This document shows, piece by piece, positions 9,487-37,924 of a stretch of 38,459 bases of DNA. The translations under genes and the position numbers were made by a program. Within the stretch, counting starts at the first letter, position 1; every line of letters begins with the position of its first letter. The notes below the pieces were generated by a model. That model ran no database searches, was not told where the DNA came from, and worked only from the letters and a program-made list of their open reading frames with translations. The stretch is from assembly GCA_030631625.1 (NCBI GenBank), contig DAOVKT010000003.1:1-38459 (forward strand). The letters are read 5' to 3'. Origin of the DNA: Gemmatimonadota bacterium. GTDB taxonomy: Bacteria > Blakebacterota > Blakebacteria > Blakebacterales > Blakebacteraceae.

Positions 9487-10024
9487 TTCTTGCTTCCAGA
9501 AGAGCCGCGGCCACCGCTACGGCTGCTGCCAGGCCTGTAGCAGCCCTCAACAGCTCACATGTCGTCCATATGCCCAACAGGTTGGCCGCACCGTCAATTG
9601 CCATAGGTGCAATGAGTATGAAGGCTGCCTTCGGCACATGCCACCGCATCCCAGCCTTTGCGGCGAGCGCCGCGATGACCCCAACTGTACCGATACCAGC
9701 GTAAAAGCCTGTACAGCGTGCGCATACGACCAGTGTGTTACCAAACAATATTAACGACCTGTCTGGAGCCTGGTGACAGAACGGCCGGAAGGCCAGCTGG
9801 ACAGCCTCATGCATAATCGTGCCAGGTCCCGCTGCCGCAGCCATCACAATCAGAGCCGAAGGTATCAGCAGCAGGGCCCCCCAGACAATCGGCGATATAG
9901 CATCCATCCTAACCTCAGCCTCAGTTCTGGCCGGGATCGGATTGACCGCTGAGCATACTGATACGATGCTCACCTTATTTGATACCATGTATTCAAGTCT
10001 ATTGTCCCTCTCTGATAGAGTCAA
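9467..10024 (-). CDS. DUF2085-type membrane protein
   Basis: FCHQAPDRS and VCARCTGFYAG signatures; PMAIDG...LRAATG. The start may be further downstream. Confidence 0.8.
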   Translation of the reverse strand: MTLSERDNRLEYMVSNKVSIVSVCSAVNPIPARTEAEVRMDAISPIVWGALLLIPSALIVMAAAAGPGTIMHEAVQLAFRPFCHQAPDRSLILFGNTLVVCARCTGFYAGIGTVGVIAALAAKAGMRWHVPKAAFILIAPMAIDGAANLLGIWTTCELLRAATGLAAAVAVAAALLEARNETIRE

Positions 10025-10674
10025 TGAACTTCACGAATGCTACTTATGTTTGATGAGAAGCATATAGACCTTATATTGTATGATATGGTGTTATTAAGTT
10101 CAAATGTGCGTCCAACTGAACAACCCTGTACCGCCTCAACAATTCCATCCAGCTGACGATCACTGTGCCACAGGAGCAGCTGGGACCCGGGGCCTAGTCC
10201 GGGAAGGACCCATCGGAACAGTCGTTCTGGAGCGGCTACCGCACGGGCAGTAATGATGTCAAAGGTTTGCAGTTCCTCGTGAACCTGGGCTTCGATACGC
10301 CCGGTAATCACATCAATTCTATCCTCCAGTCCAAGTTCCCGTACGGTAGATGAAAGCCAGTCAGCCTTCCGCCCGCGCGCCTCCAGCAGGGTGGTTTCAA
10401 GCTCAGAATTGGCAATGGTCAGCGGTATGCCGGGCAGACCTCCTCCGGAACCAACATCCATCAGGCGCAGCGGGCCGGAGGGCAGCCACTGTACCAGGGC
10501 CGCCAGGGAATCGACGATGTGGCGCACAGGGCCTTCGGTGATGGCGTTCCTGGAGATTACATTGAGCCTGGGTGAAGAGGAACAGAGCAACTGCCAATAA
10601 TCAAGGCATTGCTCCATAACAGACTGGTTGATGTACAGGCCAAGGAAAGAAAGCTCTCTGGAAAGGTCATCCAC
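10021..10674 (-). CDS. rsmG: 16S rRNA m7G527 methyltransferase
   Basis: RHIVDSL, DVGSGGGLPGIPL and DIITARAVA motifs; located downstream of yidC. GTG 10674 is preferred because the ATG at 10704 reads through parS (MFHVKQ). Confidence 0.92.
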   Translation of the reverse strand: MDDLSRELSFLGLYINQSVMEQCLDYWQLLCSSSPRLNVISRNAITEGPVRHIVDSLAALVQWLPSGPLRLMDVGSGGGLPGIPLTIANSELETTLLEARGRKADWLSSTVRELGLEDRIDVITGRIEAQVHEELQTFDIITARAVAAPERLFRWVLPGLGPGSQLLLWHSDRQLDGIVEAVQGCSVGRTFELNNTISYNIRSICFSSNISSIREVH

Positions 10675-10687
10675 TGGAGCACCATAT

Positions 10688-10703
10688 TGTTTCACGTGAA
10701 ACA
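10688..10703. promoter_or_regulatory. parS: parS centromere site 1
   Basis: Perfect TGTTTCACGTGAAACA palindrome, about 2.5 kb from the origin region. Confidence 0.93.
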
Positions 10704-10758
10704 TTTCGATTCTGTACTAACGCACCATCCCGGCCATGCATCCTGAATTTCACAGCAC

Positions 10759-10774
10759 TGTTTCACGTGAAACA
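10759..10774. promoter_or_regulatory. parS: parS centromere site 2, inside a 26-bp perfect palindrome at 10754-10779
   Basis: AGCAC-TGTTTCACGTGAAACA-GTGCT. Confidence 0.93.
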
Positions 10775-10790
10775 GTGCTCTAGTACACCA

Positions 10791-12434
10791 CTAGTCGGCA
10801 GCCTTCTCGGGCCGTTTGTGTATTAGTTCAGTCTGAAGGATCGATAGGACATTGAACAGGGTCCAGTAGAGTGTCAACCCGGCGGGAAAACTCCTGAAAA
10901 GAAAGAAGAACATTACAGGCATTATTATCGCCATTGGCCTCTGTCTCGGGTCCTTCATCTGGGCTCTCTGCTGAACAAGCATTGTAAGTGACATCAGCCC
11001 CGGCAGAACCATATACGGATCCATTACTGAAAGGTCTTGTATCCAAAGGATAAAAGGAGCCCCCCGAAGCTCTATTGTCGTGCGCAGAATAACAAAGAGT
11101 GCATAGAATATAGGCATCTGAAGAAGCATCGGGAAGCAACCGCCCAGCGGATTGACTTTATTCTCCTTGTACAGGTTCATGATCTTCCGATTCATCTTCT
11201 CCGGATTGTCCTTATACTTCTCCTTTATCTCCTGCATCTTGGGGGCCAGCTCCTGCATGGCACTCATGCTGACCCAGAACTTTCTTGTCAGCGGGAAGAC
11301 CAGTATCTTTATAAGGACTGAGAAGATTACTATCACAAAGCCGTAATTGGGAATGTACTGGTAGAGGAAGGTGAAAATCAGCAGGCTCAGCTTGCTTATC
11401 GGGCGAATAATGCTCCAACCGAAGTCCATCATCTGCTGCAGCTCAACATTGTAGCCGCGGAATATTCTGTAGTCTATCGGACCCAGGTATAGCAGAGTCT
11501 CAATAGATCCGCCCACACCTGTCGGTATTCTGCGGTCCACCGCCAAATTCATTCTTGCGGGCCCAACCTCTCCCGCTGCCCCAATCATACGTACACTGCG
11601 GAACGGTTCATCGAGGGGAATCAGGATCGCCGCGAAGTATTTCGTACGCAAAGCTGCCCAATCTACGTATCCGAACAGCTGATCCTCCACCGAGTCCTTT
11701 TTAAGTTTGGTCTTCTGAATACCACCGCCCTGAAAAGCGAAAAAACCTGAATATTGCATATCATCTTTTCTTATTTCTTCCGTGAACTCCAGTCCCCCGA
11801 TCCACATCAGTCTGTAGGAATCATTCATCGGTGATGCATCAAAGCCCTCGAACCCATCTGTGATCTTGACGTCGTATGTATCACCGCTGAACCTCATCCG
11901 GCGGCTCAAACGTCTCCCGTCACCCAGTTCGGCTGACAACTCTATTTCGATCTCTTCACCTGCACGCAGATAAATACTTTCCGGTGCATCTGTATAGAAT
12001 TGAAATTCTGTGCTCGTAACACTTACATCACCTATTGGAACCTCGATCACCGGTCCGTATGCATTCCCGGGTATAAGCCGTATATATTCTCCGTTCTTAA
12101 TGAAGTACTCTTCAAGCTGCCACTGTTCGAATACCGCTCCTTGAGTATTCAGCTCTGCTCTATACAGCGGTGTGCTAATGGTCAGAATACGTCCGCCGGT
12201 CCTTAAAGGCTCTGCAGGAAGCACTGACCGCACTATTTGTTCGGACTCCGAAGTATATCTCTCGGCCACCTCTTCAGTTCCAGCTCCTGCCGGACTGGTC
12301 TGCACGGGGGCACCTGTGCTGTCGGCAGGCACCTGCTCGGGACCCGGTCCGTAGAGAAACTTGAAATACGTCGGCATCAACAGCAGGATGATCCCTATAA
12401 TGATCAGTGCGACAATAGTGCGCCTATCTTTCAT
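10791..12434 (-). CDS. yidC: Membrane protein insertase YidC, long form with periplasmic domain
   Basis: N-terminal helix, periplasmic domain, [24 protein letters not shown] and FPAGLTLYW motifs. Confidence 0.97.
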
Positions 12435-12670: not shown

Positions 12671-13001
12671 TCAGTGTCTGGAATGAGCGGGTAAGGTTAA
12701 GGTGTGAAGCATGTTGGGCGTCCGATCTGGCAATGAGCAGGAATTCACCAGCCGGGGGTAACAAGTCTCGTTTTCTCCGGTAAATATCCCTTAACCTTCG
12801 CCGCAACCTGTTCCTGGCAACCGCACCTCTACAATGTCGGCTTACTGCCACCCCCACACGGCGGTGTGCCATCTTTTCGGTTTGAGGTAGATATCGGATT
12901 ATGAGATAGACGTCCTCGACGCTTACTCCATCACGCATCAGCATCCGGTAGCTATCCCTGCCTTTAAGACGCTCACCCCTGGGCAGGCGCTCTCGGGCCA
13001 C
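12642..13001 (-). CDS. rnpA: Ribonuclease P protein component
   Basis: RVGVAVSR and RNR motif [12 protein letters not shown]; lies between rpmH and yidD. Confidence 0.94.
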
Positions 13002-13004
13002 GGT

Positions 13005-13139
13005 TCACACCGCCAAGCGACGGCGACCTTTCTTCCTCCGGCGCTTTAGCACTGCCTTGCCACCAGCATCGCGCATCCGTCTGCGGAAACCGTGCTTGTT
13101 CTTTCTCTTGCGCCGGCTTGGCTGATAGGTCCTCTTCAC
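13005..13139 (-). CDS. rpmH: 50S ribosomal protein L34
   Basis: Below the ORF-track length cutoff. Manual translation gives [44 protein letters not shown], with a GTG start and a GAGGTG ribosome-binding site. Confidence 0.97.
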
Positions 13140-13160
13140 TTTTTCCACCTCAACTTACAT

Positions 13161-13198
13161 TTAGTGCACCACTCCGTAATTACGGAGCGGTGCACTTA
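13161..13198. repeat. 32-bp palindromic element, copy 1, flanked by TTA direct repeats
   Basis: TTA-GTGCACCACTCCGTAATTACGGAGCGGTGCAC-TTA; one mismatch in the 16-bp arms; 28/32 identical to the copy at 24683. Confidence 0.88.
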
Positions 13199-13216
13199 GA
13201 AACTGCAAGACCTGCT

Positions 13217-13246
13217 AAGCTATTAGTTTAATTGTGTTTCAGTCAA
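13217..13246 (-). promoter_or_regulatory. Candidate sigma-70 promoter of the rpmH operon
   Basis: TTGACT-N18-TAGCTT on the minus strand. Confidence 0.45.
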
Positions 13247-13346
13247 GTTCAAAGCCGTGATATATGCAATATTGTTACGGTACTTGATCGGGTTGTTATT
13301 ATGGCATACTTTATTTTTTTACTTTCAGCCACTTTTTTTATTTTTG

Positions 13347-13534
13347 TGTGGAAAACCTCTTGACTGTCTCTCTTTTATTATGGTAGATTATACATCCGTT
13401 TGGGTGTGTTGATATGTGGATAAGGTGTGGATAAGGTTGTCTTCACACTGTGGAAAACGTTCGGACACTAAAAAAGGCTCCTCTGCAACCTCTTAGAATT
13501 GTTGAGGTTATAACGGCTGTCACAATGTGGATAA
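13347..13534. promoter_or_regulatory. DnaA-box cluster upstream of dnaA (oriC1 and/or dnaA autoregulation)
   Basis: Perfect TGTGGATAA at 13415, 13426 and 13526; TGTGGAAAA at 13347 and 13449; AT-rich context. Confidence 0.9.
13360..13389 (+). promoter_or_regulatory. Candidate sigma-70 promoter of dnaA
   Basis: TTGACT-N18-TAGATT with an extended -10 TG at 13381-13382; DnaA boxes lie just downstream. Confidence 0.55.
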
Positions 13535-13557
13535 AATAATCCATCAGCTGTGAAGGT

Positions 13558-14937
13558 GTGAAAAAGTTGGCGCCTACTTTAGAACTCATCTGGTCTCAAT
13601 GCCTAGAGGACCTCTCATCACAGCTACCATTACAAAGCTTTGAAACATGGTTCAAGCCGATAAGGGCAGTTGAGTACTCCTCCCAGAAACTTCACCTGGA
13701 GGTGCCAAGTCAGTTCTTCAGTAACTGGGTGGAGCAGCACTACCAGCATCTACTTCAGCGGGTAGTCACAGCGCGTGTCGGCGATGGGGTAGAAGTAGTA
13801 TTCGATGTGAGAGAAGGGGGTATTTTTGAAGAGGTAACCTTCCCTCACCCCTTGCACACTCCAGAGCCCATACCGCCAAAACTTGAACTTATGGTAGACC
13901 CTATCGCCCTGAACCCCCGTTTCTCATTCGAAACTTTCGTAGTTGGCAACAGCAACCAGTTTGCTCATGCAGCTTCCAAGGCTGTGGCTGAGGCTCCAGG
14001 TAAAACCGCTTTCAATCCTCTTCTTATTTACGGTGGTGTGGGATTAGGGAAAACTCACCTTCTACAGGCCATCGCCTCCTACGCTCTCTCTCATGTTACC
14101 GCCACGAAGGTTATCTACATCTCCAGTGAAAAATTCATTAGTGATTTCATAACATCCATTCAGAACAATAAAACCACCGAATTCACATCCCTTTACCGTG
14201 GTGTTGATCTACTTCTTGTTGATGATATTCAGTTCTTCACCAACAAAGAGAGAACCCAGGAAGAGTTCTTCCACACCTTCAACACACTACATCAGCGTGG
14301 AAAACAGATCGTTCTCACTTGTGACCGCCTGCCGAGAGAACTCCAGGGCCTCGAGGAGAGGTTGATATCCAGATTCCTCTGGGGCCTTGTAACCGACATT
14401 CAGACACCAGATCTTGAAACCAGGGTTGCCATCCTCCAAAAGAAGGCAGACAACGACGGTGTAGTCATACCTCATGATGTCCTACTCTACATCGCACAAA
14501 ACATTAAGTCGAATATACGTGAGCTTGAGAGCTGTCTTATAAAACTCCTTGCTTACTCATCCCTTACCGGTCAAGAGATCTCGGCAGAGATGGCCCAGGA
14601 AGTCCTCCACGACCAGATCGAGTCAACCAGGAAGTGGATCACTATAGAATCTCTTCAGGAGACAGTGGCCTCCTATTTCAACCTTTCCTCCGACCTTCTC
14701 CGTGCAAGGACCAGAAAGAAAGAGATTGTAGTACCGAGGCAGATTGCGATGTATCTGTGTAAACATCTTACCGACAGTAGTCTTAAAACAATAGGTCTAC
14801 ACTTCGGTGGTCGGGATCACACTACAGTCATTCATGCTCAGCAGACCATAGAGGAAAAGCTGCAGAAGAACCCACAGTTGAAAAGAGATGTTGATACTAT
14901 CCTGTCGAGACTTGATGTCGAACCTGGTCTGCTATAA
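13558..14937 (+). CDS. dnaA: Chromosomal replication initiator DnaA
   Basis: FETWF domain I; Walker A GGVGLGKT; LLVDDIQF, TQEEFFHTFN, NIRELE and GGRDHTTVIHA. Confidence 0.99.
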   Translation: MKKLAPTLELIWSQCLEDLSSQLPLQSFETWFKPIRAVEYSSQKLHLEVPSQFFSNWVEQHYQHLLQRVVTARVGDGVEVVFDVREGGIFEEVTFPHPLHTPEPIPPKLELMVDPIALNPRFSFETFVVGNSNQFAHAASKAVAEAPGKTAFNPLLIYGGVGLGKTHLLQAIASYALSHVTATKVIYISSEKFISDFITSIQNNKTTEFTSLYRGVDLLLVDDIQFFTNKERTQEEFFHTFNTLHQRGKQIVLTCDRLPRELQGLEERLISRFLWGLVTDIQTPDLETRVAILQKKADNDGVVIPHDVLLYIAQNIKSNIRELESCLIKLLAYSSLTGQEISAEMAQEVLHDQIESTRKWITIESLQETVASYFNLSSDLLRARTRKKEIVVPRQIAMYLCKHLTDSSLKTIGLHFGGRDHTTVIHAQQTIEEKLQKNPQLKRDVDTILSRLDVEPGLL

Positions 14938-15290
14938 GAACAGATAAACTTAATACACATGCCCCCTGTTGATAAGTTTGTTACTAAAAAGTGATTTATG
15001 TGGAAAAGAAACCCCTAATGAAAACTTATTCTTTGTCGTGTTGATTATGTATATAACAGGGCAGGTTATCAATATGTTATTCCCATGTAATTCACGTTTT
15101 CCAAATCTCTCTAACTTGTTGTGTATCAATGAGTTTTAGTCTCATGGAAAGGGTTTTAAGACAATCCACATACCTTACTACTATTGTTTCTATTTCTGTT
15201 AAATTTTTATATCTTACCTGTTGTATAAGAAATCAAATGAAACACTGGTTAGTAACGTAGGAATAAAGTCACATAAATGGGGAGCGGCTG
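14938..15290. other. oriC: oriC2: degenerate DnaA boxes, IHF-like site, DnaA-trios and AT-rich unwinding element
   Basis: TGTTGATAA at 14967; TGTGGAAAA at 14999; 11-bp-phased TTATCAATA/TTATTCCCA/TAATTCACG at 15066/15077/15088; TATCAATGAGTTT at 15124; CAATCCACA at 15162 followed by nine triplets with central T (15175-15201) and an AT tract. Confidence 0.85.
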
Positions 15291-16412
15291 ATGAAAGTAC
15301 GACTTTCAAGGGATGAAGTGACGGAGGCATTAGCCAGTATCCAGCAGGTAGTTCCTCCAAAGACTACACTGCCAATACTTTCCAATCTTTTACTGAGGGC
15401 AAAAGAGGGACGTCTCTATATATCCTCGACAGATTTAGATATTTCAATGAGAACGTCTATTGAATGTGACCTTCTTGAAGAGGGTGTCACGACGGTGCCG
15501 GCACGTAAATTCAGCGAGATAGTAAGGGAGCTCCCCGAGGAAACCTTCCAGCTGGATGAGAGCGAAGACCGGATAAGTCTTACGTGCGGAAGGGGTCAGT
15601 ACAAGCTAACGGGCATAGATTGGGAGGAATTTCCTAAGATACAAGAAGGGGTCGAGGGTGTTCGAATCCATATAGAGGGTAATTATTTAAAGAGAATGGT
15701 GAGCACAACCTCATTCGCGGTATCAAGCGATGAGACGCGTCCAGCTCTGGGTGGGGTGTTATGGAAAATCACAGGGAAGGACACCCGTATGGTCTCTACT
15801 GATGGACACCGTCTAGCATTACTGGAGTTGAGTGATGTCATTGGTGGGGATAGTGAAATAGATGTGGAAGTTATAGTTCCACCAAAGGCCCTTGGTCAGA
15901 TAACTCGTCTTATAGGTGAAGGGAAAAACCTTAAAGAGGTGGTGGTGGGTGAGAAGTATATACAGGCGGAAATGGGTGACACAGTTCTACTTACACGTCT
16001 TATAGATGGCCCGTATCCCAACTACAAACTCGTAATGCCAAAGGATAATGATAAAAAGCTTATTGTTGAGAGAGATATTCTAGAGGCCGCTGTTAGTCGT
16101 GTTTCAATTCTAAGTAACACTCAGACACACCAGGTAAGATTCGACCTTGAGGAGAGCAGCGCCCAGCTCAGCGCAATCAGCCCGGACCTTGGTGCGGAAG
16201 CCCGTGATCATATTGAAGTTGTGTATGATGGATCTCCTATGACGCTTGCCTATAACGCTTCATATCTACTTGAGGTCCTCAGACACATACGACGTGGCGA
16301 GATCGAAATTACCTTAAAGACTCCGGTAAGCGCCGGTCTATTACGCCCAGTTGAGCAAGAAGAAGGGGAAGACCTGACATTTCTTTTGATGCCGCTGCGC
16401 CTGAATGACTGA
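15291..16412 (+). CDS. dnaN: DNA polymerase III beta sliding clamp
   Basis: TTLPILSN, STDLD, DETRPALGGV, STDGHRL, GPYPNY and C-terminal LLMPLRL. Confidence 0.98.
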   Translation: MKVRLSRDEVTEALASIQQVVPPKTTLPILSNLLLRAKEGRLYISSTDLDISMRTSIECDLLEEGVTTVPARKFSEIVRELPEETFQLDESEDRISLTCGRGQYKLTGIDWEEFPKIQEGVEGVRIHIEGNYLKRMVSTTSFAVSSDETRPALGGVLWKITGKDTRMVSTDGHRLALLELSDVIGGDSEIDVEVIVPPKALGQITRLIGEGKNLKEVVVGEKYIQAEMGDTVLLTRLIDGPYPNYKLVMPKDNDKKLIVERDILEAAVSRVSILSNTQTHQVRFDLEESSAQLSAISPDLGAEARDHIEVVYDGSPMTLAYNASYLLEVLRHIRRGEIEITLKTPVSAGLLRPVEQEEGEDLTFLLMPLRLND

Positions 16413-17528
16413 ACAGGGGAAGGATACAAAACAACCCCCCACACAGTTAAAGAGGCTGTCTCTTAAGGCGTTCCGTAACTACACAGACGCAGATTTGGAA
16501 CTGGGTCCTGGACTGAACCTTGTGATCGGACCCAATGGTCACGGAAAGACGAACCTTGTCGAAGCGGTCTACTTTCTGTGCCTTGGTCGCTCCTTCCGAG
16601 AGAGAATCGACAGGCGACTGATAATGTTCGGTGCACCGCAGGCACGGCTTTGTGGGGATGTCGAGTGGGCAGGTAGGGGGCATAAAGTCGAAGTTGCATG
16701 GAGACGAAGTGGATCAAAGAAAGCCTGGCTGGATGGGGCTAAGCTGGGTCGGATCAGCGAGCTTGTAGGGAAAACACCTGTGGTAAGCCTTACACCTGAA
16801 GATGGATCACTGGTTCATGGTGATCCAGGGGCGCGCAGGAGGTTTTTGGATATAGTTCTGGCCCAGACTGATCGCAGCTACCTTTCGGCACTGAAACGTT
16901 ACAGGAGGGCCCTTCTCCAGCGGAACCTTTGCCTTCGCGAAGGAAGGTTTACACTGGCGGAGGCATACGAGGACTCCCTGGAAGAGAGCGCGGTGGAAAT
17001 ACGCAGATGTAGAAGAGCCCTTGTTGATTTCATCCAGGAGAGTTCAGCCCAGACATACCGCGATATAAGCAGTCAGGGGGAATCATTAAGGCTCAAGTAC
17101 CGTCCAAACCCTCCAACAGGAGAGGAGGACACCGACAGTGTTGCCCAGGCTCTTTCCGATGCGAGAGACCTTGACCGGGAACGCGGTTTCACCAGTGTGG
17201 GCCCCCACAGGGATGACATCCAGATAGATATGGATGAAAGGGAATTGAAGACATATGGGTCGCATGGACAGTCAAGAACTGCACTGGCCACACTTAAACT
17301 GGCCGAGGTGAGCTACTATTTAAGGATCTACAATCGCCCCCCGATCTTGATAATGGATGAAGTCGCTGCGGTGCTGGATCGGGGCAGAGCCTCAAATCTG
17401 ATACGTCTTCTGTCTGATATGTCCTCCCAGGTGTTTGTTACTTCGCCGTCCGTCGAGGATCTGGGAAGTGTAGCGGATGCAGCTGGATGCGTTGTGGAGG
17501 TCGAGGAAGGCAAGGTGAGCAGAAAGCG

Positions 17529-17532
<4 letters not shown>
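16405..17532 (+). CDS. recF: DNA replication and repair protein RecF
   Basis: FRNY, Walker A GPNGHGKTN, RRRFLD, GPHRDD, SHGQ and LIMDEV. Confidence 0.96.
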
Positions 17533-19786
<2,254 letters not shown>

Positions 19787-19792
19787 CTAAGT

Positions 19793-22507
19793 ATGGCAAC
19801 ACTGCACAGACAGAGAATCGTGCCCGTTAACATCGAGGAGGAGATGAAGGCCTCCTACATCGACTACTCGATGTCTGTGATCGTATCGCGGGCGCTACCC
19901 GATGTGCGCGATGGCCTCAAGCCGGTCCATCGCCGGATCCTTTACGGGATGAGAGAACTTGGCCTCCACCCGAACCGCGCCCACCGCAAAAGTGCAAGAC
20001 TGGTCGGGGATGTGCTCGGAAAGTACCATCCCCACGGTGACTCAGCGATCTACGACAGCTTAGTTCGCATGGCTCAGAACTTCTCGCTGCGCTACCCGCT
20101 GATTGACGGGCAGGGGAACTTCGGCAGTATAGACGGGGATTCGGCCGCAGCAATGCGGTACACGGAATGCCGGATGGCAAAAATCGCGGGGGAGATGCTT
20201 CAGGACCTCGATAAAGGCACGGTAGGCTGGGTCCCCAATTTTGATGAAACTCTTCAGGAGCCGCAGGTTCTACCCACCAAACTGCCCAACCTTCTGGTCA
20301 ACGGCGCCTCCGGGATTGCGGTCGGAATGGCTACGAACATTCCTCCGCATAACCTGACCGAAGTGGTGAACGGTCTGGTTCATCTGGCGGAAAATCCGGA
20401 CGTTGAAATCGAGGAACTGATGGAGTTTATCACCGGCCCCGATTTCCCGACCGGAGGGATAATCTACGGCAGGCAGGGTATTATCAGCGCCTTCAAGACC
20501 GGCCGCGGCAAGGTGATAGTCCGAGCCCGTGTCCACATCGAGGAGGTGAAGGACCGCGAAAGGATCGTTATCACCGAAATTCCCTACCAGGTTAACAAAT
20601 CCAACCTTCTGGAGAAGATCGCAGATCTAGTGAGGGAGAAGAAGGTGGAGGGGATCTCCGATCTGAGGGATGAGTCGGACCGTGAGGGCATGAGGATCGT
20701 GCTGGAGGTCAAAAGGGATGCCCCGGCCGAGGTAATCGTGAACATGCTCTATAAGAACACCCAGCTTCAGACCACCTTCGGTGTGATCAACCTGGCGCTT
20801 GTGGATGGGCAGCCCAAAGAGCTCAATCTGAAGGAAACCCTGCAGGCATTTCTCGACTTCCGCCACTATGTGGTGGAGAGGCGTACCCGGTACGAGCTGG
20901 CCCAGGCCGAGGCCAGGGCCCACATCCTGGAGGGACTCAGGATATGTGTAGACAACATCGATGAGATCATAGCCCTTATAAAAAAGGCGAAGGATCCCGA
21001 AGCTGCGAAGAAGCAGCTGAAGAAGCAGTTCGAGCTGTCAGATGAGCAGGCGCAGGCCATCCTGGATATGCGGCTTGCCAGGCTGACAGGCCTGGAGAGA
21101 ATGAAGATCGAGGAGGAGTATCGGGAAATTATTGAAAAGATCGCCCACTACAGGGAAGTACTGGCCAACCGGGGCCTTCGCATGGCGATAGTCAAGGAGG
21201 AGCTGCTGGAGCTCCTGGAGAAATACGGGGATGACAGGCGGACCGAGATTCTGGAGGATGCTGGGGAATTCAGCATGGAGGACCTGATTGCGGAAGAGGA
21301 CATGGTCATCACGATTTCCCACCAGGGGTACACCAAACGTATCCCTGTCTCGACTTACAGGAGCCAGGGCCGGGGTGGGAAGGGTATCAGGGGAATGGGG
21401 ACGAAAGAAGAGGATTTCGTTGAACACCTCTTCGTAGCCTCGACACACTCGTACATCCTTTTCTTCACAGACCGCGGTAAGTGCTACTGGCTCAAAGTCT
21501 ACGACATACCCCAGGGGGGACGCCTCGCCAAGGGACGACCGCTCATCAACCTGATCCAGGTGGAGAAGAAGGAGACTGTCAGGGCAATGGTGCCGGTCCG
21601 GACTTTCGAAGAGGGCAGGTTCGTGATATTCGGCACCGGGCGTGGTCTCGTGAAGAAGACCCCGCTCACCGGCTACAGCAATCCGCGCCGGGATGGCATT
21701 ATAGCAATCGATATAAACGGGGGTGATGAGCTGATTGAGGCTCAGCTCACCGATGGCACCTGTGACGTTATACTCGGCACGAAAAAGGGAATGGCTATAC
21801 GTTTCCACGAAGACGATGTGCGTCCGATGGGGAGGGATACAAGGGGTGTAAAGGGGATAACCCTGGCGAAGGAGGGTGACGGGGTCGTCGGGATGGTCAT
21901 CGTACGGCGTGAGGGTTACATACTGACGGTGGCCGAGCTCGGCTACGGCAAACGCACAAAGATCAGCGACTATCCGGTGCAACGCAGGGGAGGGAAGGGT
22001 GTGATTACCATGAAGAGCTGTGAACGCAATGGGGACGTACTGATGCTGCAGGAAGTTGTTGACACCGACGAGCTTATGCTGATCACCAGGAACGGCTTGA
22101 TCATCCGTCAGGCCGCCGGGAAGGTTTCCGTTATTGGTAGGAATACCCAGGGGGTGAGGTTGATGAATATGGGCGATGGGGACAAGGTAGTGGACGTAGC
22201 CCGCGTCGCCGAAAAGGACCAGACAGAGATTGACTCTGCTGGTGCGGTGGATATAGCTGAGGAAACCCCGGAATCAGGAGGAGAAGAGACAACCGACACT
22301 TCCGGGAAAGCGGACAGGACTGGGGTGGCGCACAAGGCGAAAACGGCAAGTAAGGCTACGACGACTGGAAAGGCTACGACGACGGGTAGGGCCAAGACTA
22401 CCGGCAAGAAAAAAACCTCCACTAGGTCGAAATCAGCGGGCAGCAAGAAAACGGCTGGGAAGAAGAAGGCGACAAGCCGGTCGCAGAAGGGCCGGGCCGG
22501 CCGCTGA
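19793..22507 (+). CDS. gyrA: DNA gyrase subunit A with an extended acidic-then-basic C-terminal tail
   Basis: [10 protein letters not shown], catalytic AAAMRY, GyrA-box QGRGGKG and a pinwheel C-terminal domain. Confidence 0.99.
22334..22405 (+). repeat. In-frame 18-nt degenerate tandem repeat in the gyrA tail
   Basis: aaggctacgacgactgga and aaggctacgacgacgggt plus weaker flanking units, encoding [24 protein letters not shown]. Confidence 0.8.
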
Positions 22508-22611
22508 TGAGCGGTGCCCCCGATATGCCCTGACGAACATGGGAAAATAGTTCGTTGGGGTTGTTGACACTTTTGTGGACTCTTCGGCCCTTTACGGCGT
22601 AATATATTACT

Positions 22612-22679
22612 ACACAAGCAGTTACAACCTTCGAGATACTAACAAATGATGTGGATAATTCCTCCTGAGGAGTGGATAA
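22612..22679. promoter_or_regulatory. DnaA-box pair with an IHF-like site downstream of gyrA
   Basis: TGTGGATAA at 22650 (perfect) and AGTGGATAA at 22671, 21 bp apart; ACACAAGCAGTTA at 22612. Confidence 0.6.
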
Positions 22680-22847
22680 GGAGTTATTAAAAGCATCAGA
22701 TTGGTGAAAAGGGGTGAAATGGAAGGATATTGTGTGTAATATTGACACGATAAACATCAACATCATGTTGCAGAATGACTACAAACGGGGTGAAACCAGA
22801 CGCATTCTCTGTCCGTAACATGCTTATAAAGCAACACTTGTTCCCGG

Positions 22848-22864
22848 TTGGCACGGAGTGTGCT
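22848..22864 (+). promoter_or_regulatory. Sigma-54 (-24/-12) promoter
   Basis: TTGGCACGGAGTGTGCT has GG-N10-GC spacing and one mismatch to TGGCACG-N4-TTGCW; it lies about 90 bp upstream of the ATG. Confidence 0.75.
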
Positions 22865-22951
22865 TGCATCTATGGATAGGTGGCATGCTGGAATGCACGC
22901 CTGAATTATCGGGCGCATGAAGTGTCCCAGATGCGGGCAAGGAGTCATTCA

Positions 22952-24682
22952 ATGAAGAGCATACGCTGGGCGGTTCCAATCCTGATTTATACGGTTGCCG
23001 CTACCGGCACGTCGGTGAAGGCAGCGCCAGGTAACGGCGAGAGCAAACTTGTGGGTTATTGGAGTACGCCGGTGGTGCAGGAAGGACCACGCCGGGTGAG
23101 GGGTGATTACAGAATAGAGAGGGGCGAGGTGGTCCGCAGAGACCTGATAGTTGAGGGCGGCACCTTGACGGTTGATGGCGAGGTCCGCGGCTGGGTAGTG
23201 GTCACCCACGGCGACGCATTTATTCGAGGTACGGTTCAGGGGCTCGTGGTAGTTCTCTATGGCGACGTGATGGTCCTTGATAGCGGGCTTGTACAGGGAG
23301 ACGCGGTCAGTGTTGAGGGGGATGTGATAATGAGGGGGTCCGGTGTGGTCACCGGCAGCAAGTGGACCACAACAAGGCAGGGTCTGGAGCGGCAGGGCCG
23401 TGACGTGGACTGGGCACGTGTGGTGCGTCAGTCAGGAGTCCTGGGCAGGGAGGAGGAGTTGGAACGCGAGTGGCCGCGAAGGGAGCGGGACTGGGATGTC
23501 GATTGGGATGACAGGTGGAATTACCGTCGGTGGACAGCCTATGAATTCGCATACACTGGCGACTTCCCGCTTGGATGGGTCTGCTACAACCGGGTTGATG
23601 GACTGACGGTCCAGGGAGAGATATTCAACAGCCAGCACGATTGGGGAAGCGCCGCAACCAGCTTTTACGGTGGTGCCGGCTACGCATTTGCAAGCAAGGA
23701 GCTTTACTACCGGCTCGGACTGAACCGCTTCTTCTTCCCTGGAACACCTGTCGAGCTCGGGATCTCGATGTACAGGCAGCTGGATACGGAAGACGCCTGG
23801 TATATAACGCCAAACGAAAACGACTTGAATGCTTTCCTGGCCCGCTACGACTGGTACGACTACTACAGAGTGGAAGGTATGCAGGCTCATCTCAGGTTCA
23901 GGCCTCAGAGGTGGCTGCAGCTGGGTGTTCGCTACGCCCAGGATACGGAGATGGTGGCCGAAAGGGTCACGAACTGGTCGATTTTCGGAGGGGACAGAGT
24001 ATTCAGAGAGAATAAATGGCTTACGACTTACGATCAGGACCCCGATCTGAGGGAATATTCCATAGCCGACGAGGGGGAGATCCGCCGCCTTGTATATTTC
24101 GTACGGCTCGACCTGACCTCAGGCAGCAGCAGGCGGCCGACACGGGGAGTGGTGGTTGACGCCACACTCGAGAAAGCGGAGCACCAGGGCATCGACGCCG
24201 GTGACCCATTCACATACGAGCGGCTGCTGATCAAACTGGAGGCATACCAGCGGCTGAGCCGGATCGACCACCTGGCCCTGCGCGTACGTGCGGGCTCGTC
24301 AACCGTGGAGACCTCCTACGCCCTCCCCGTGCAGCACCGGTACTACATGGGCGGTGTGGGAAGCCTGCGGGGTTACGATTTCAAACAGTTCAACGGGAAC
24401 CGGTTATTTCTCGGCACTCTGGAATACACACTCGGTGCCGACGGCTCGTCGCCCTTCTTCGGTGGCTGGGCTCTGACCTTCTTCTACGACTATGGGCTGG
24501 CATGGGACGCCGATCCCGAAGTTGAAATTGACAAGGAACTGACACCCGGGGAGGCCGTGCGGAGTATCGGTGCTGCAATCGCACCGTTCGGTTGGGGCGG
24601 TATGAGGATTGAGGTAGCCAAGCCGCTCGACACCGAGGGAAAAGGGCTCACCTATTACATCCGGTGGTCGTTTGATTTCTAA
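22952..24682 (+). CDS. Outer-membrane protein with N-terminal bactofilin-like beta-helix repeats fused to an Omp85-like barrel
   Basis: ATG 22952 follows AAGGAG; signal peptide; Val/Gly/Asp repeats (LTVDGEVRGWVVVTHGD, VQGLVVVLYGD, VQGDAVSVEGD); lid motif MGGVGSLRGY; FFYDYG; terminal WSFDF. Confidence 0.75.
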   Translation: MKSIRWAVPILIYTVAATGTSVKAAPGNGESKLVGYWSTPVVQEGPRRVRGDYRIERGEVVRRDLIVEGGTLTVDGEVRGWVVVTHGDAFIRGTVQGLVVVLYGDVMVLDSGLVQGDAVSVEGDVIMRGSGVVTGSKWTTTRQGLERQGRDVDWARVVRQSGVLGREEELEREWPRRERDWDVDWDDRWNYRRWTAYEFAYTGDFPLGWVCYNRVDGLTVQGEIFNSQHDWGSAATSFYGGAGYAFASKELYYRLGLNRFFFPGTPVELGISMYRQLDTEDAWYITPNENDLNAFLARYDWYDYYRVEGMQAHLRFRPQRWLQLGVRYAQDTEMVAERVTNWSIFGGDRVFRENKWLTTYDQDPDLREYSIADEGEIRRLVYFVRLDLTSGSSRRPTRGVVVDATLEKAEHQGIDAGDPFTYERLLIKLEAYQRLSRIDHLALRVRAGSSTVETSYALPVQHRYYMGGVGSLRGYDFKQFNGNRLFLGTLEYTLGADGSSPFFGGWALTFFYDYGLAWDADPEVEIDKELTPGEAVRSIGAAIAPFGWGGMRIEVAKPLDTEGKGLTYYIRWSFDF

Positions 24683-24717
24683 GTGCACCGCTCCGTAATT
24701 GCGGAACGGTGTACTAA
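24680..24717. repeat. 32-bp palindromic element, copy 2, flanked by TAA direct repeats (the left TAA is the stop codon)
   Basis: TAA-GTGCACCGCTCCGTAATTGCGGAACGGTGTAC-TAA. Confidence 0.88.
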
Positions 24718-24723
24718 CGAATA

Positions 24724-24751
24724 CAAGTGTAATTGCGGAATGGTGTACCAA
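24724..24751. repeat. Internally deleted copy 3 of the palindromic element, flanked by CAA direct repeats
   Basis: CAA-GTG[10 bp missing]TAATTGCGGAATGGTGTAC-CAA. Confidence 0.75.
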
Positions 24752-24763
24752 GGGAGTGGTTCG

Positions 24764-25636
24764 ATGAATAGAAGCGAAATACAGGCACTGAAAACCCTGC
24801 TGGTGACGGTGCTGCTGTTGCTGGTTGCAAGTACCCTGCTATTTGCTCAGAGTCCGCCCCAGGTGATTACAAAGTCCTTCACCCCGGATACAGATCGCCC
24901 GCTCCAGGTGAAAATCAGGGGTGACGGGGCGGAGATCACGCTCGAGAGCGTGGCCCGGAGCAGGCAGGGGAGGGCGCGATACCGTTACGATGAAGAGCAT
25001 TTTTCGGGCACACTCGAATGGGAGCCGGAAAGTAACAGATTCGAAGTCTTTCTCGATATGGATCTGGTCGGCTTCGATACCGATGACGAGGAGCACGAAT
25101 CGGAGCTTGAGGTGCTCCTCCCGCGCAGGCCCGAGATTGACCTCGATGTATCGCTCAAGGCTGGAATCATTTCACTCGACGGTGAGCAGCTTACCTTTGA
25201 CAATCTGAATCTTTCTCTGTGGGCCGGCGAGCTGAAGGCGTCGTTTCCGACCCTGTCGAATAAGGTAATCGACAGGGTGGAAATGGATGTTAAACTGGGG
25301 GAGCTACACCTGAAAGGGCTGGGCAACCTGGCGTTTGAGGAACTGGATGTCAACGGGTTCGCAGGGGAGATGATACTGGATTTCCGCGGTACGTTGTCGA
25401 TGAGGCGGGAGGCCAGGATAGACCTGGAAATAGGTACTATAACCGTCGTAGTACCTAAGGGCATGACGGTTCAGGCCAGGGTGAGTAAGCTGGGCTTCCT
25501 GGCCCAAGTCAACGTTCCCGATGGGTGGAGAAGGGATGGAAGGTATATCTACTCGCCAGGTGCAAGAAGGGGCGAGGCAGATCTGAGACTGGTCATTCGG
25601 GGTGGAATCGGCGAAATAGCTATCGAAGAGCGATAG
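24764..25636 (+). CDS. Secreted beta-solenoid protein, LiaF/DUF2154/DUF4097-like
   Basis: ATG 24764 follows GGGAG; signal peptide ending LFAQ; repeated units LDVSLKAG, LNLSLWAGEL, VEMDVKLGEL, LDVNGFAGEM and IDLEIGTITVVVP. Confidence 0.7.
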   Translation: MNRSEIQALKTLLVTVLLLLVASTLLFAQSPPQVITKSFTPDTDRPLQVKIRGDGAEITLESVARSRQGRARYRYDEEHFSGTLEWEPESNRFEVFLDMDLVGFDTDDEEHESELEVLLPRRPEIDLDVSLKAGIISLDGEQLTFDNLNLSLWAGELKASFPTLSNKVIDRVEMDVKLGELHLKGLGNLAFEELDVNGFAGEMILDFRGTLSMRREARIDLEIGTITVVVPKGMTVQARVSKLGFLAQVNVPDGWRRDGRYIYSPGARRGEADLRLVIRGGIGEIAIEER

Positions 25637-36886: not shown

Positions 36887-37924
36887 ATGGGTGACGGGAA
36901 TCCACAGCAGAGCGGAGCGGTGTACTCAGGCCAGGAGCAGCCACGCCTGCTTATTACAATGGGCGATCCGGCCGGCGTGGGGCCGGAGGTTGTCCTTAAA
37001 GCACTGCCTGTGCTGGTGGAGGAAGGATTGGGCCCGATAGGTGTGGTTGGGCCGCCGGTGCTGTGGGAACTGGCTGCTGCCATGCTGGGCCTTCCCCGGC
37101 CACAGGATCACCAGATACATATAGTGGTTCCCGAGAGTCTTCAAGGGATGGATAATGGTCTGGCGCGCGATATTCTGTTCTGCGGCGAAAGGACCACTAC
37201 AGGGGCCAGCGTCGCACTGGAATGCCTTGAGACGGCTGCCGAGTTCGCCTCGGCAAATCCACAGAAAACTGCGGTGATAACAGCTCCCGTTAACAAGAGG
37301 GCGCTGCACGATGCGGGGGTAACCACGCCGGGTCTCACAGAGTGGTTCGGCGAGCGGTTCGATTCCCAGACGCCGCTCATGCTACTTGTAGGGGGAAGGC
37401 TCCGTGTAGCTGTTGCTACTACGCACATTCCTCTGCGGGAGGTTCCGTCGGCACTGACAGTGGAAGGAATCGCCGGCCGGCTGTCTGTTCTCCACGAAGG
37501 ACTGCGAGCGCAGTTTGGCGTTGATGGTCCGCGGATCGCCCTGCTGGCGCTGAATCCTCACGGTGGAACCGGCGCCGAGGAAGATCGTGAGGAGCGAGAG
37601 GTACTGGAGCCGGCCATGCTGGAGGCCAGAAGCGGTAGTGTCAATGTGGATGGTCTCTTCAGCGCCGATGCATTCTTCGGCCGCCGCCGCTGGGAATTGT
37701 ATGATGCTGTCATGGCGCCATACCACGACCAGGGCCTCACTGCCGTGAAGATCGAGGCGGGGGGGATGGGGGTCAATGTAACGCTGGGGCTGCCCGTCGT
37801 ACGCACATCACCCGACCATGGGACTGCGTTCGACATAGCGGGAAAGGGGGTAGCGGGGGAAGGTGCCACGGTCGCCGCCGTCAGGCTCGCCGACGCTCTG
37901 CTGGATGGGCGTGGAGCCCGCTGA
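36887..37924 (+). CDS. pdxA: 4-hydroxythreonine-4-phosphate dehydrogenase
   Basis: TMGDPAGVGPE, TAPVNK, TTHIPL, LNPH, YHDQG and VRTSPDHGTAFDIAGKG. Confidence 0.93.
   Translation: MGDGNPQQSGAVYSGQEQPRLLITMGDPAGVGPEVVLKALPVLVEEGLGPIGVVGPPVLWELAAAMLGLPRPQDHQIHIVVPESLQGMDNGLARDILFCGERTTTGASVALECLETAAEFASANPQKTAVITAPVNKRALHDAGVTTPGLTEWFGERFDSQTPLMLLVGGRLRVAVATTHIPLREVPSALTVEGIAGRLSVLHEGLRAQFGVDGPRIALLALNPHGGTGAEEDREEREVLEPAMLEARSGSVNVDGLFSADAFFGRRRWELYDAVMAPYHDQGLTAVKIEAGGMGVNVTLGLPVVRTSPDHGTAFDIAGKGVAGEGATVAAVRLADALLDGRGAR

Follow-up and report, generated by a model that had tools for sequence, protein, structure and literature searches.

Background

The insertion sequence (IS) IS1031, a member of the IS5 family, prefers a TNA target (PMC1676026), and the PIF/Harbinger elements, which are related to IS5 (PMC5172404), make a 3-bp duplication of TTA or TAA (PMC2213677). 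Repetitive extragenic palindromes (REPs) are extragenic palindromes of 20-40 bp with a GTAG (or CGTC) tetranucleotide at one end (PMC3733652). This work concerns a 32-bp palindrome that lies between two TAA triplets at the end of a gene in a Gemmatimonadota bacterium, and the MITE family (miniature inverted-repeat transposable elements) to which it belongs. The window, that is, the whole stretch of DNA analysed, has a length of 38,459 nucleotides (GCA_030631625.1, DAOVKT010000003.1) and is contig C92 of the genome labelled G000, a 2.52-Mb draft of 227 contigs with 57.6% G+C and 89% completeness. G001 and G002 are congeneric genomes, and L-numbers denote loci on contigs of relatives or metagenomes.

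Further background comes from transposition and from palindrome instability. Correia elements (NEMIS) of Neisseria measure about 100-160 bp, have inverted ends and internal-deletion variants, occupy intergenic positions near genes and are flanked by a TA duplication. The extended palindromic target favoured by mPIF has CTTAG as its core, a motif for which the literature search found no paper. Elements of the IS200/IS605 type are not known to make a target duplication, have asymmetric ends and insert 3' of a fixed short motif. In E. coli, long palindromes are deleted by slipped mispairing between short direct repeats.

Insertion target and empty sites

The palindromes of the window probably belong to a lineage-specific family of hairpin MITEs whose copies are inserted by a transposase supplied in trans and then collapse. 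The following features in the window belong to this family or adjoin it.

24680-24682, + strand: TAA, stop codon of the open reading frame (ORF) 22880-24682 (Omp85 family) and left copy of the target duplication; the G002 ortholog has one TAA and no element
24683-24714, no strand assigned: 32-bp palindrome GTGCACCGCTCCGTAATTGCGGAACGGTGTAC, composed of a 16-nt left end and a 16-nt right end of the MITE family
24715-24717, + strand: TAA, right copy of the target duplication of the 24683-24714 element
24718-24748, + strand: second copy, a 31-nt right-arm stump CGAATACAAGTGTAATTGCGGAATGGTGTAC with a truncated left end, matching the right arm of full copies
24749-24751: CAA, ordinary flank of the stump at 24718-24748
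13161-13198, no strand assigned: TTA, 32-bp palindrome GTGCACCACTCCGTAATTACGGAGCGGTGCAC (13164-13195) and TTA, in the rpmH-dnaA spacer about 20 bp upstream of the rpmH start
36912-36925 (with flank to 36928), - strand: remnant of an end, 14 nt long (GTACACCGCTCCGC) and flanked by TGA (TCA on the + strand), interior lost

The insertion target was read from 106 unique elements of G000, its relatives and metagenome contigs, which provide 212 flanks in end orientation. Position -4 is C in 141 of the 212 flanks, position -3 is T in 162, position -2 is T in 100 and A in 78, and position -1 is A in 184. Among the flank triplets, TTA (70) and TAA (55) are followed by CTA (18), TGA (13) and TCA (10), and TNA triplets make up 148 of the 212. 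The consensus target is C|TNA|G with TNA duplicated. Identical triplets are found on both sides of 46 elements. Since TWA is self-complementary except for its middle base, agreement of the middle base is a test of true duplication, and where both flanks are TAA or TTA, 40 elements have them in direct and 4 in inverted orientation. The predicted 3-bp duplications, and with them a non-autonomous family of the transposase type, are borne out by these counts. Perfect duplications are carried by 11/13 elements of 100-110 bp, 16/35 of the 32-mers and 14/45 elements of 150-180 bp. The CTA flanks, some of which are arranged as CTA...TAG, may be 2-bp TA duplications within CTAG.

The family is clearly mobile DNA. 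For 23 elements of G001 and G002, both flanks are present on a single G000 contig, and a by-eye comparison with the G000 element list found the site empty in G000 in 22 of these cases and shared in one, where G000:C23 (176 bp) corresponds to G002:C98 (161 bp). The positions are consequently not fixed across taxa, as they would be for a regulator site, since 22/23 differ between congeneric genomes. Clean single-copy empty targets were found as TTA at G000:C24 and as C-TTA-G at G000:C41:32824, where a metagenome contig with about 95% flank identity carries a 68-bp copy between TTAs. The window sites themselves are empty in relatives, as the original prediction had proposed to check. In G002, the ortholog of the 24683 site has the sequence ...gatttt TAA ggg..., where TAA stands once and the element is missing, and the G001 ortholog of the 13164 site lacks the element; at the 24683 site, the G001 ortholog is masked by Ns.

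With G as its first and C as its last base, the element restores CTNAG at either border when it inserts. Two tandem 32-mers, 3 bp apart, are present in G001 at L061:5064-5130, an arrangement consistent with this renewal of CTNAG by each insertion. A joint that goes back 35 in one contig from run X2 (24713>24679; window 24679-24713) could be a tandem copy of the element plus TAA, as in L061, or a repeat artefact.

Anatomy of the family

The 12-nt core CCGYAATTRCGG occurs at 31 sites in the genome, compared to 0 for the reversed control, and 29 of the 31 sites carry the family arms. About half of the core sites are not 32-mers and mark the end of a longer element, in which GTGCACCGCTCCGTAATTACGG is followed by TGATGTATCGAGAGCGCCGAGGCGTCCGGCCAGC... 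A scan of G000 with a 16-nt degenerate end, allowing at most two mismatches, returned 93 matches that resolve into 25 pairs and 43 unpaired ends, 26 of them credible. The pairs enclose 32 bp in eleven cases and 161 bp in eight, with one pair each of 59, 104, 108, 153, 176 and 341 bp. This amounts to about 51 elements (25 paired and 26 one-ended) over 2.52 Mb, and the prediction that many more copies would exist genome-wide was correct.

The standard element is a single long imperfect palindrome of 161 bp without coding capacity, with the left end GTGCACCGCTCCGTAATTACGGTGATGTATCGAGAG... and the right end ...CAGCGTAATTGCGGAACGGTGTAC, from which the 108-, 68-, 59- and 32-bp forms derive by internal deletion. 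Ends of 16-22 nt are common to every size class, and each class folds as the same long hairpin minus a part of the apex. In the 341-bp form, a 161-bp copy holds an unrelated MITE of some 181 bp nested at its apex. This form is a nested insertion and not a longer parent, so that the full length of the family is 161 bp. The differences between left and right ends are consistent and affect three positions (G3A, C9T, T14C). The two window palindromes lie 11.5 kb apart and are identical at 28 of 32 positions, in agreement with the earlier description, and their four differences (positions 8, 19, 24 and 30) are all transitions. The observation that all substitutions are transitions is thus correct for 4/4 positions, but the pattern mostly reflects the fixed differences between the left and right parent ends.

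Several other repeats were observed next to these elements. The nested MITE represents a second MITE-like family of about 181 bp with the ends GGAGCCTGCCGG...CCGGCAGGCTCC, which has at least eight nearly full copies as well as fragments in G000. Its loci are the following.

G000:C120:108-448: 341-bp form, nested copy included
C148:3863-~4190, C46:340-520 and C60:12989-13172: further loci with coordinates
C145, C104, C7, C130 and C122: further loci

At G000:C59:1959-~2130, a family left end is followed by two to three tandem units of about 50 bp (GGTGCTCGAATGGAGCACTCT..ACGCCTCTGGCGAGGCGTTCG) that replace the usual interior. A third small palindrome, AGTTTCCGTTCGGAAACT (G000:C215 ~1975-1996), has 10 matches in G000 with at most two mismatches on both strands, compared to about 0.1 expected; at G000:C215 it occupies the site where a related strain (L131) carries a 32-mer. 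Between G000:C1:7919-8084 and L125:3501-3661, the flanks are 96-98% identical while the element is strongly diverged and the G000 ends are degenerate. This G000 element resembles a second subfamily of G002 (L042, L045), and the divergence could stem from replacement, conversion or two independent insertions at one target.

Origin of the 32-bp form

CCGTAATTACGG at positions 11-22 of the left arm and GCGTAATTGCGG, which immediately precedes the final ten bases of the right arm, make up a direct repeat of 11 bp with a single A/G mismatch, CGTAATT(A/G)CGG, at the base of the hairpin. Losing everything between these repeats gives exactly the 32-mer. At the metagenome locus L202 of a near-identical strain (right-flank identity 98.7%), a full 161-bp copy occupies the exact site of the 32-mer at G000:C41:10855, and the derived right end GCGGAGTGGTGTA is common to the two. 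Therefore, at least some 32-mers arise in place. Other losses follow the same pattern: the 161-bp copy at G000:C47 is matched by one of 63 bp at L139, whose junction falls on a 4-bp repeat, and interior losses were found between repeats of 11 bp (161 to 32 bp), 4 bp (161 to 63 bp) or 6 bp, with symmetric products. Full copies are present at L161 and L207, where G000 keeps a right-arm stump only (C30, C99) owing to a deletion that crosses the left boundary.

Position 19 of the 32-mer is A in 11 and G in 10 of 35 copies. Such near-equal numbers are expected from recurrent deletion with crossovers on either side of the single repeat mismatch. In the palindrome at 24683-24714 this position is G, as expected for a junction inside the CGTAATT repeat, and the same sequence recurs identically at other loci in G002. 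The 32-mers are read here as mainly collapsed longer copies; the collapse is seen directly at one locus, and we infer it for the others. Among the larger derivatives, the seven fetched 108-bp copies of G002 share one junction without microhomology, which is also present at G000:C193, and the three fetched 68-bp copies share another. The 108- and 68-bp derivatives clearly multiplied after their deletion.

An alternative is that the 32-bp palindrome is the mobile unit itself, consisting of two abutted 16-bp ends that are moved in trans and acquire their own 3-bp duplication. The 35 unique 32-mers are located at different loci, 16 of them with identical triplets (14 TAA or TTA), the sites of six placeable 32-mers of G001 and G002 are empty in G000, and the tandem pair in L061 as well as the clear multiplication of other deletion derivatives (108 and 68 bp) would fit such a unit. 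However, one 32-mer demonstrably arose in place from a 161-bp copy that collapsed, and although groups of 8 and 6 identical sequences exist among the 32-mers, the 11-bp repeats at the hairpin base make the deletion recurrent, so that shared length and sequence are no proof of common descent. Moreover, both junction types at position 19 (A or G) are about equally frequent, and two ends on a straight 32-bp duplex would not be able to loop into the usual paired-end complex. A self-mobile 32-mer is regarded as unlikely, although some of the copies may have been inserted as 32-mers, as their preserved duplications, the tandem pair and the renewed CTNAG borders would allow. The original prediction of an ultra-short MITE holds for a mobile family that would be served in trans, but the 32-bp unit is the smallest member of a deletion series of the 161-bp element, with one shown collapse, and its role as the mobile unit lacks support in the form proposed.

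It is rather improbable that the 32-bp palindrome is a working transposition substrate for an enzyme encoded in none of the ten phylum genomes. The same low probability applies jointly to two corollaries for a moving 32-mer, namely that its enzyme would come from an unassembled or transient replicon or an undescribed family, and that this enzyme would act on a straight duplex, a hairpin or a cruciform instead of a looped paired-end complex. If a substrate without a spacer can move, it would set a lower size limit for cut-and-paste transposition, and a 32-mer that is a working substrate would be the smallest mobile DNA described.

Distribution and age

The three genomes of the genus contain 65, 82 and 65 end matches. 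The phylum is represented in the collection by ten genomes, all of them draft metagenome-assembled genomes (MAGs; 63-96% complete); elsewhere in the phylum, five genomes have 1-10 end matches and two have none. In 31 genomes outside the phylum, there were no end matches. Carriers in public records are MAGs titled Zixiibacteriota or Gemmatimonadota, and a MAG titled Eisenbacteria has a copy of some 104 bp that shares the ends and has TAA flanks but differs in its interior. The single matches that a 21-nt pattern has among records of Bryobacteraceae, Steroidobacterales and Roseovarius appear fortuitous, as about 17 are expected in 596 Gb. The sequencing runs that hold the window are cold-seep and marine-sediment metagenomes from 11 studies.

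Identity among 161-bp copies is 93.3% inside G000 (range 90.7-96.9%) and 90.5% when G000 is compared with G002, whereas the flanking host DNA of these species reaches only about 70-87%. These identities indicate a separate spread of the family after the species split and no very recent burst. Contigs of four runs, each from a different study, contain both window copies at 97-100% identity, and the 13164 copy is also present at the metagenome locus L214.

Search for the transposase

In line with the original prediction, there is no transposase in the window. An IS bounded by GTGCACC, which had been suggested as the source, was sought in the phylum genomes and the metagenome contigs and was not found. 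PF01609 has 13 matches in the ten phylum genomes, none of them in G000 or G002 and all at loci without family ends, and PF13359 (DDE_Tnp_4) has no match in the same genomes. In five genomes (G000-G003, G006), PF13586 has no match, PF13340 one weak match below the family cut-off, PF05598 one match without family ends, and PF00665 seven matches, none with family ends. No transposase of the DDE_Tnp_1, DDE_Tnp_1_2 or DUF4096 type was found in G000. A REP-associated tyrosine transposase (RAYT) gene, also proposed earlier, was not recovered in the form of a Y1 transposase (PF01797) match in G000, G001 or G002 (89, 90 and 63% complete). A scan of viral contigs for family ends gave 0 matches.

No end pair more than 400 bp apart encloses a transposase in 72 genome-contig and 95 metagenome stretches. 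The following long pairs were rejected as parents, being either a genuine end paired with a fortuitous match or two MITEs that flank an ordinary gene.

C25: 3475 bp
C73: 4894 bp
L127: 2318 bp
L166: 1459 bp
L185: 919 bp

The pairs on C25 (3.5 kb) and C73 (4.9 kb) consist of a real end and a chance match, and the L166 pair encloses an ORF that, by sequence, resembles a glycine-cleavage T protein. IS copies with other inverted repeats, namely ACACATAGGTAACAGTT (G000:C93), CCTGTTCCTCGCCAATATTCC (G000:C107) and GAGCCTGTCCAGCAAACCTCC (G003:C177), are not parents either. Since multi-copy IS often fail to assemble in draft MAGs, the negative result for the transposase is a failure to find and not a proof of absence. 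Judging by the target signature alone, the family may be assigned to the IS5 (IS1031 group)/PIF-Harbinger type.

Proposed life history

In the proposed sequence of events, a cut-and-paste DDE transposase acting in trans would make a 3-bp staggered cut at C|TNA|G and duplicate TNA, a step suggested by the duplications together with the target logo and the empty sites, although the searches above found no such enzyme. The inserted long palindrome would be unstable and would lose its interior between short direct repeats of both arms. Loss between the CGTAATT(A/G)CGG repeats would leave the 32-bp palindrome of two ends without a spacer, and deletions that cross a boundary would leave one-armed stumps such as 24718-24748. 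Insertions at gene ends would be tolerated, as the stop codon is kept.

Several points weigh against this account of insertion in trans followed by collapse. The collapse to 32 bp has been viewed directly at one locus only, and the duplications of the 32-mers are at least as intact as those of the 161-bp class (16/35 compared to 14/45), which would fit independent insertion equally well. A perfect duplication is kept by only 46 of the 106 elements, and the 18 CTA flanks need a separate explanation. No autonomous parent is at hand, as the ten phylum genomes contain no transposase locus with family ends. In the contigs of the four runs, none skips either window copy, a result that says nothing on rare empty alleles because contigs drop rare variants. 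The missing empty window allele, together with the 90.7-96.9% identity of the G000 copies, gives no sign of current activity.

The stages of this life history that are documented are insertion at C|TNA|G, spread of derivatives, collapse to a 32-bp stump and erosion to one-armed fragments, in a barely studied candidate phylum of cold seeps and marine sediments. When these genomes are annotated, short perfect palindromes between TAA or TTA triplets should be regarded as transposon remains and not as regulatory sites, including those that touch stop codons or lie within the rpmH-dnaA region.

Insertions at stop codons

The location of the elements relative to genes was assessed with a crude home-made gene model based on ORFs and codon usage, which comprises 2,020 genes and 87% coding sequence. 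Of the 25 paired G000 elements, 24 are intergenic. In 11 of the 51 G000 elements, the element adjoins a predicted stop and the gene is kept closed; the flank TAA is the stop in three of these, including the window copy, and in eight the stop is formed by TA of the flank and the first G of the element. Owing to the initial G of the element, the stop codon survives as TAA or TA|G when the insertion falls on TAA or, one base before, on the xTA of a TAR stop. The null expectation, taken as the share of non-disruptive TAA/TTA/CTA/TAG sites that overlap a stop in the same way, is 10.7%, which corresponds to an enrichment of about two-fold (p = 0.018, one-sided). The earlier claim that the element favours stop codons and leaves the gene intact is therefore correct in kind, but the preference is only about two-fold under a crude model. 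This preference is real but modest and is largely explained by the TNA target and by selection against gene disruption.

Other readings of the palindromes

REP-like repeats, or hairpins that are moved in single-stranded form by a tyrosine transposase of the RAYT or IS200/IS605 type, would also give short extragenic palindromes in high copy number, and the ends of REPs have likewise been reported to provide TAG stops to adjoining ORFs (PMC3733652). However, neither end of the family bears a GTAG or CGTC tag, the ends being GTGCAC or GTACAC, and the PF01797 search described above returned no Y1 transposase in the incomplete genomes G000, G001 and G002. Symmetric ends, 3-bp duplications and clean empty sites are not known to be produced by insertion of the IS200/IS605 type. 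This makes the reading very improbable. That the palindromes are host-functional sites under selection, such as regulator sites, terminators or mRNA-stabilising hairpins, is barely credible: the 32-mer does form a strong RNA hairpin (-19.8 kcal/mol), 24 of 25 paired elements are intergenic, 11 of 51 adjoin a stop codon and both window copies are fixed in the contigs of the four runs, but positions are unconserved at 22 of 23 sites, the tails after the window hairpins (TAACGAATAC and TTAGAAACTG) lack a T-run, the 9 terminator-like sites in 12900-25000 include neither copy, no Rfam family matches (Rfam 15: 0 matches in the window at gathering score and none on the 161/170-bp elements at E <= 1), and binding sites have neither target duplications nor a length series. 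Each of the REP/RAYT, IS200/IS605-type, terminator and RNA-family readings lacks a feature that would define it, and the trans-inserted, collapsing hairpin MITE family remains the preferred explanation.

Window copies and neighbouring features

The original prediction described the palindrome at 24683-24714 as lying between TAA repeats on the stop codon of the upstream gene, and this is the case, as the left TAA ends ORF 22880-24682. Its degenerate 32-mer has two matches in the window, both of them the known copies, compared to 0.00 expected from 100 shuffles. The second copy between TTA repeats was likewise confirmed at 13164-13195. In contrast, the supposed internally deleted copy between CAA repeats turned out to be a right-arm fragment. 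Full copies read ...CTCGAATACAAGCGTAATT... and end with ...CTCGAATACAAGCGTAATTGCGGAACGGTGTAC, and 24718-24748 corresponds to the right arm's final 31 nt; the CAA on its left belongs to the interior of the element and is therefore not a target duplication. Stumps of this kind arise by the boundary-spanning deletions seen at G000:C30 and G000:C99. The possible remnant at the yidC stop (10783-10791) matches only 9 nt of an end, which is at chance level. The 9-mer GTRCACCRY occurs nine times in the window, six of them in the described copies, and the remaining three compare with 1.94 expected. The end remnant at 36912-36925 had been absent from the original prediction.

ORF 22880-24682 encodes a protein of the Omp85 superfamily, and the next ORF (ATG 24764) has a LiaF-like C-terminal domain. 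The identities of dnaA and yidC in the window were confirmed. Near the start of the Omp85-family ORF, runs X2 and X8 have an insertion of 25-26 bp at 22898-22907, and in run X8 the stretch 22512-22557 is replaced by 15 other letters. Between ORF 10021-10704 and the yidC stop, a 16-bp palindrome TGTTTCACGTGAAACA occurs twice (10688-10703 and 10759-10774), 71 bp apart, and the second copy sits in a perfect 22-bp palindrome CACTGTTTCACGTGAAACAGTG (10756-10777). From its sequence, this pair looks like binding sites of a dimeric regulator and unrelated to the MITE. DnaA-box-like motifs of the TGTGGATAA type are clustered at 13400-13545 upstream of dnaA (13558), about 200 bp from the 13164 element, and probably mark the replication origin region.

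Comparison with known systems

The family is a lineage-restricted addition to a well-known kind of MITE, of which the literature found, with subscription literature and ISfinder outside the search, makes no mention. The closest likeness is to MITEs of the IS1031 group, which have the same 3-bp TNA duplication, terminal inverted repeats, non-coding sequence and dozens of intergenic copies (for the TNA target, PMC1676026). In contrast to these, no IS with the ends GTGCACCGCTCCGTAATT was present among the IS copies examined here, and G000 has no matching transposase. Tourist-like MITEs (mPIF, mPing) share the 3-bp duplication of TTA or TAA (PMC2213677). They differ from the present family, which has a bacterial host, lacks PF13359 in the ten phylum genomes and forms one long hairpin instead of short ends around an unrelated interior.

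In Correia elements the duplication is TA, in contrast to TNA here, and to our knowledge a collapse to a 32-bp form of two ends has not been described for them. Size, inverted ends, deletion variants and near-gene intergenic positions are the same in both (for Correia elements, see also the review PMC10969869). The REP/RAYT system also has extragenic palindromes of 20-40 bp in high copy number whose ends can give stop codons (PMC3733652). Unlike REPs, the family described here has no GTAG/CGTC tag and no RAYT gene was found in G000-G002, while target duplications are present. The deletion of palindromes by slipped mispairing may have its counterpart in this family as well, in which a near-perfect palindrome of 161 bp loses its interior between short direct repeats and likewise leaves symmetric products.

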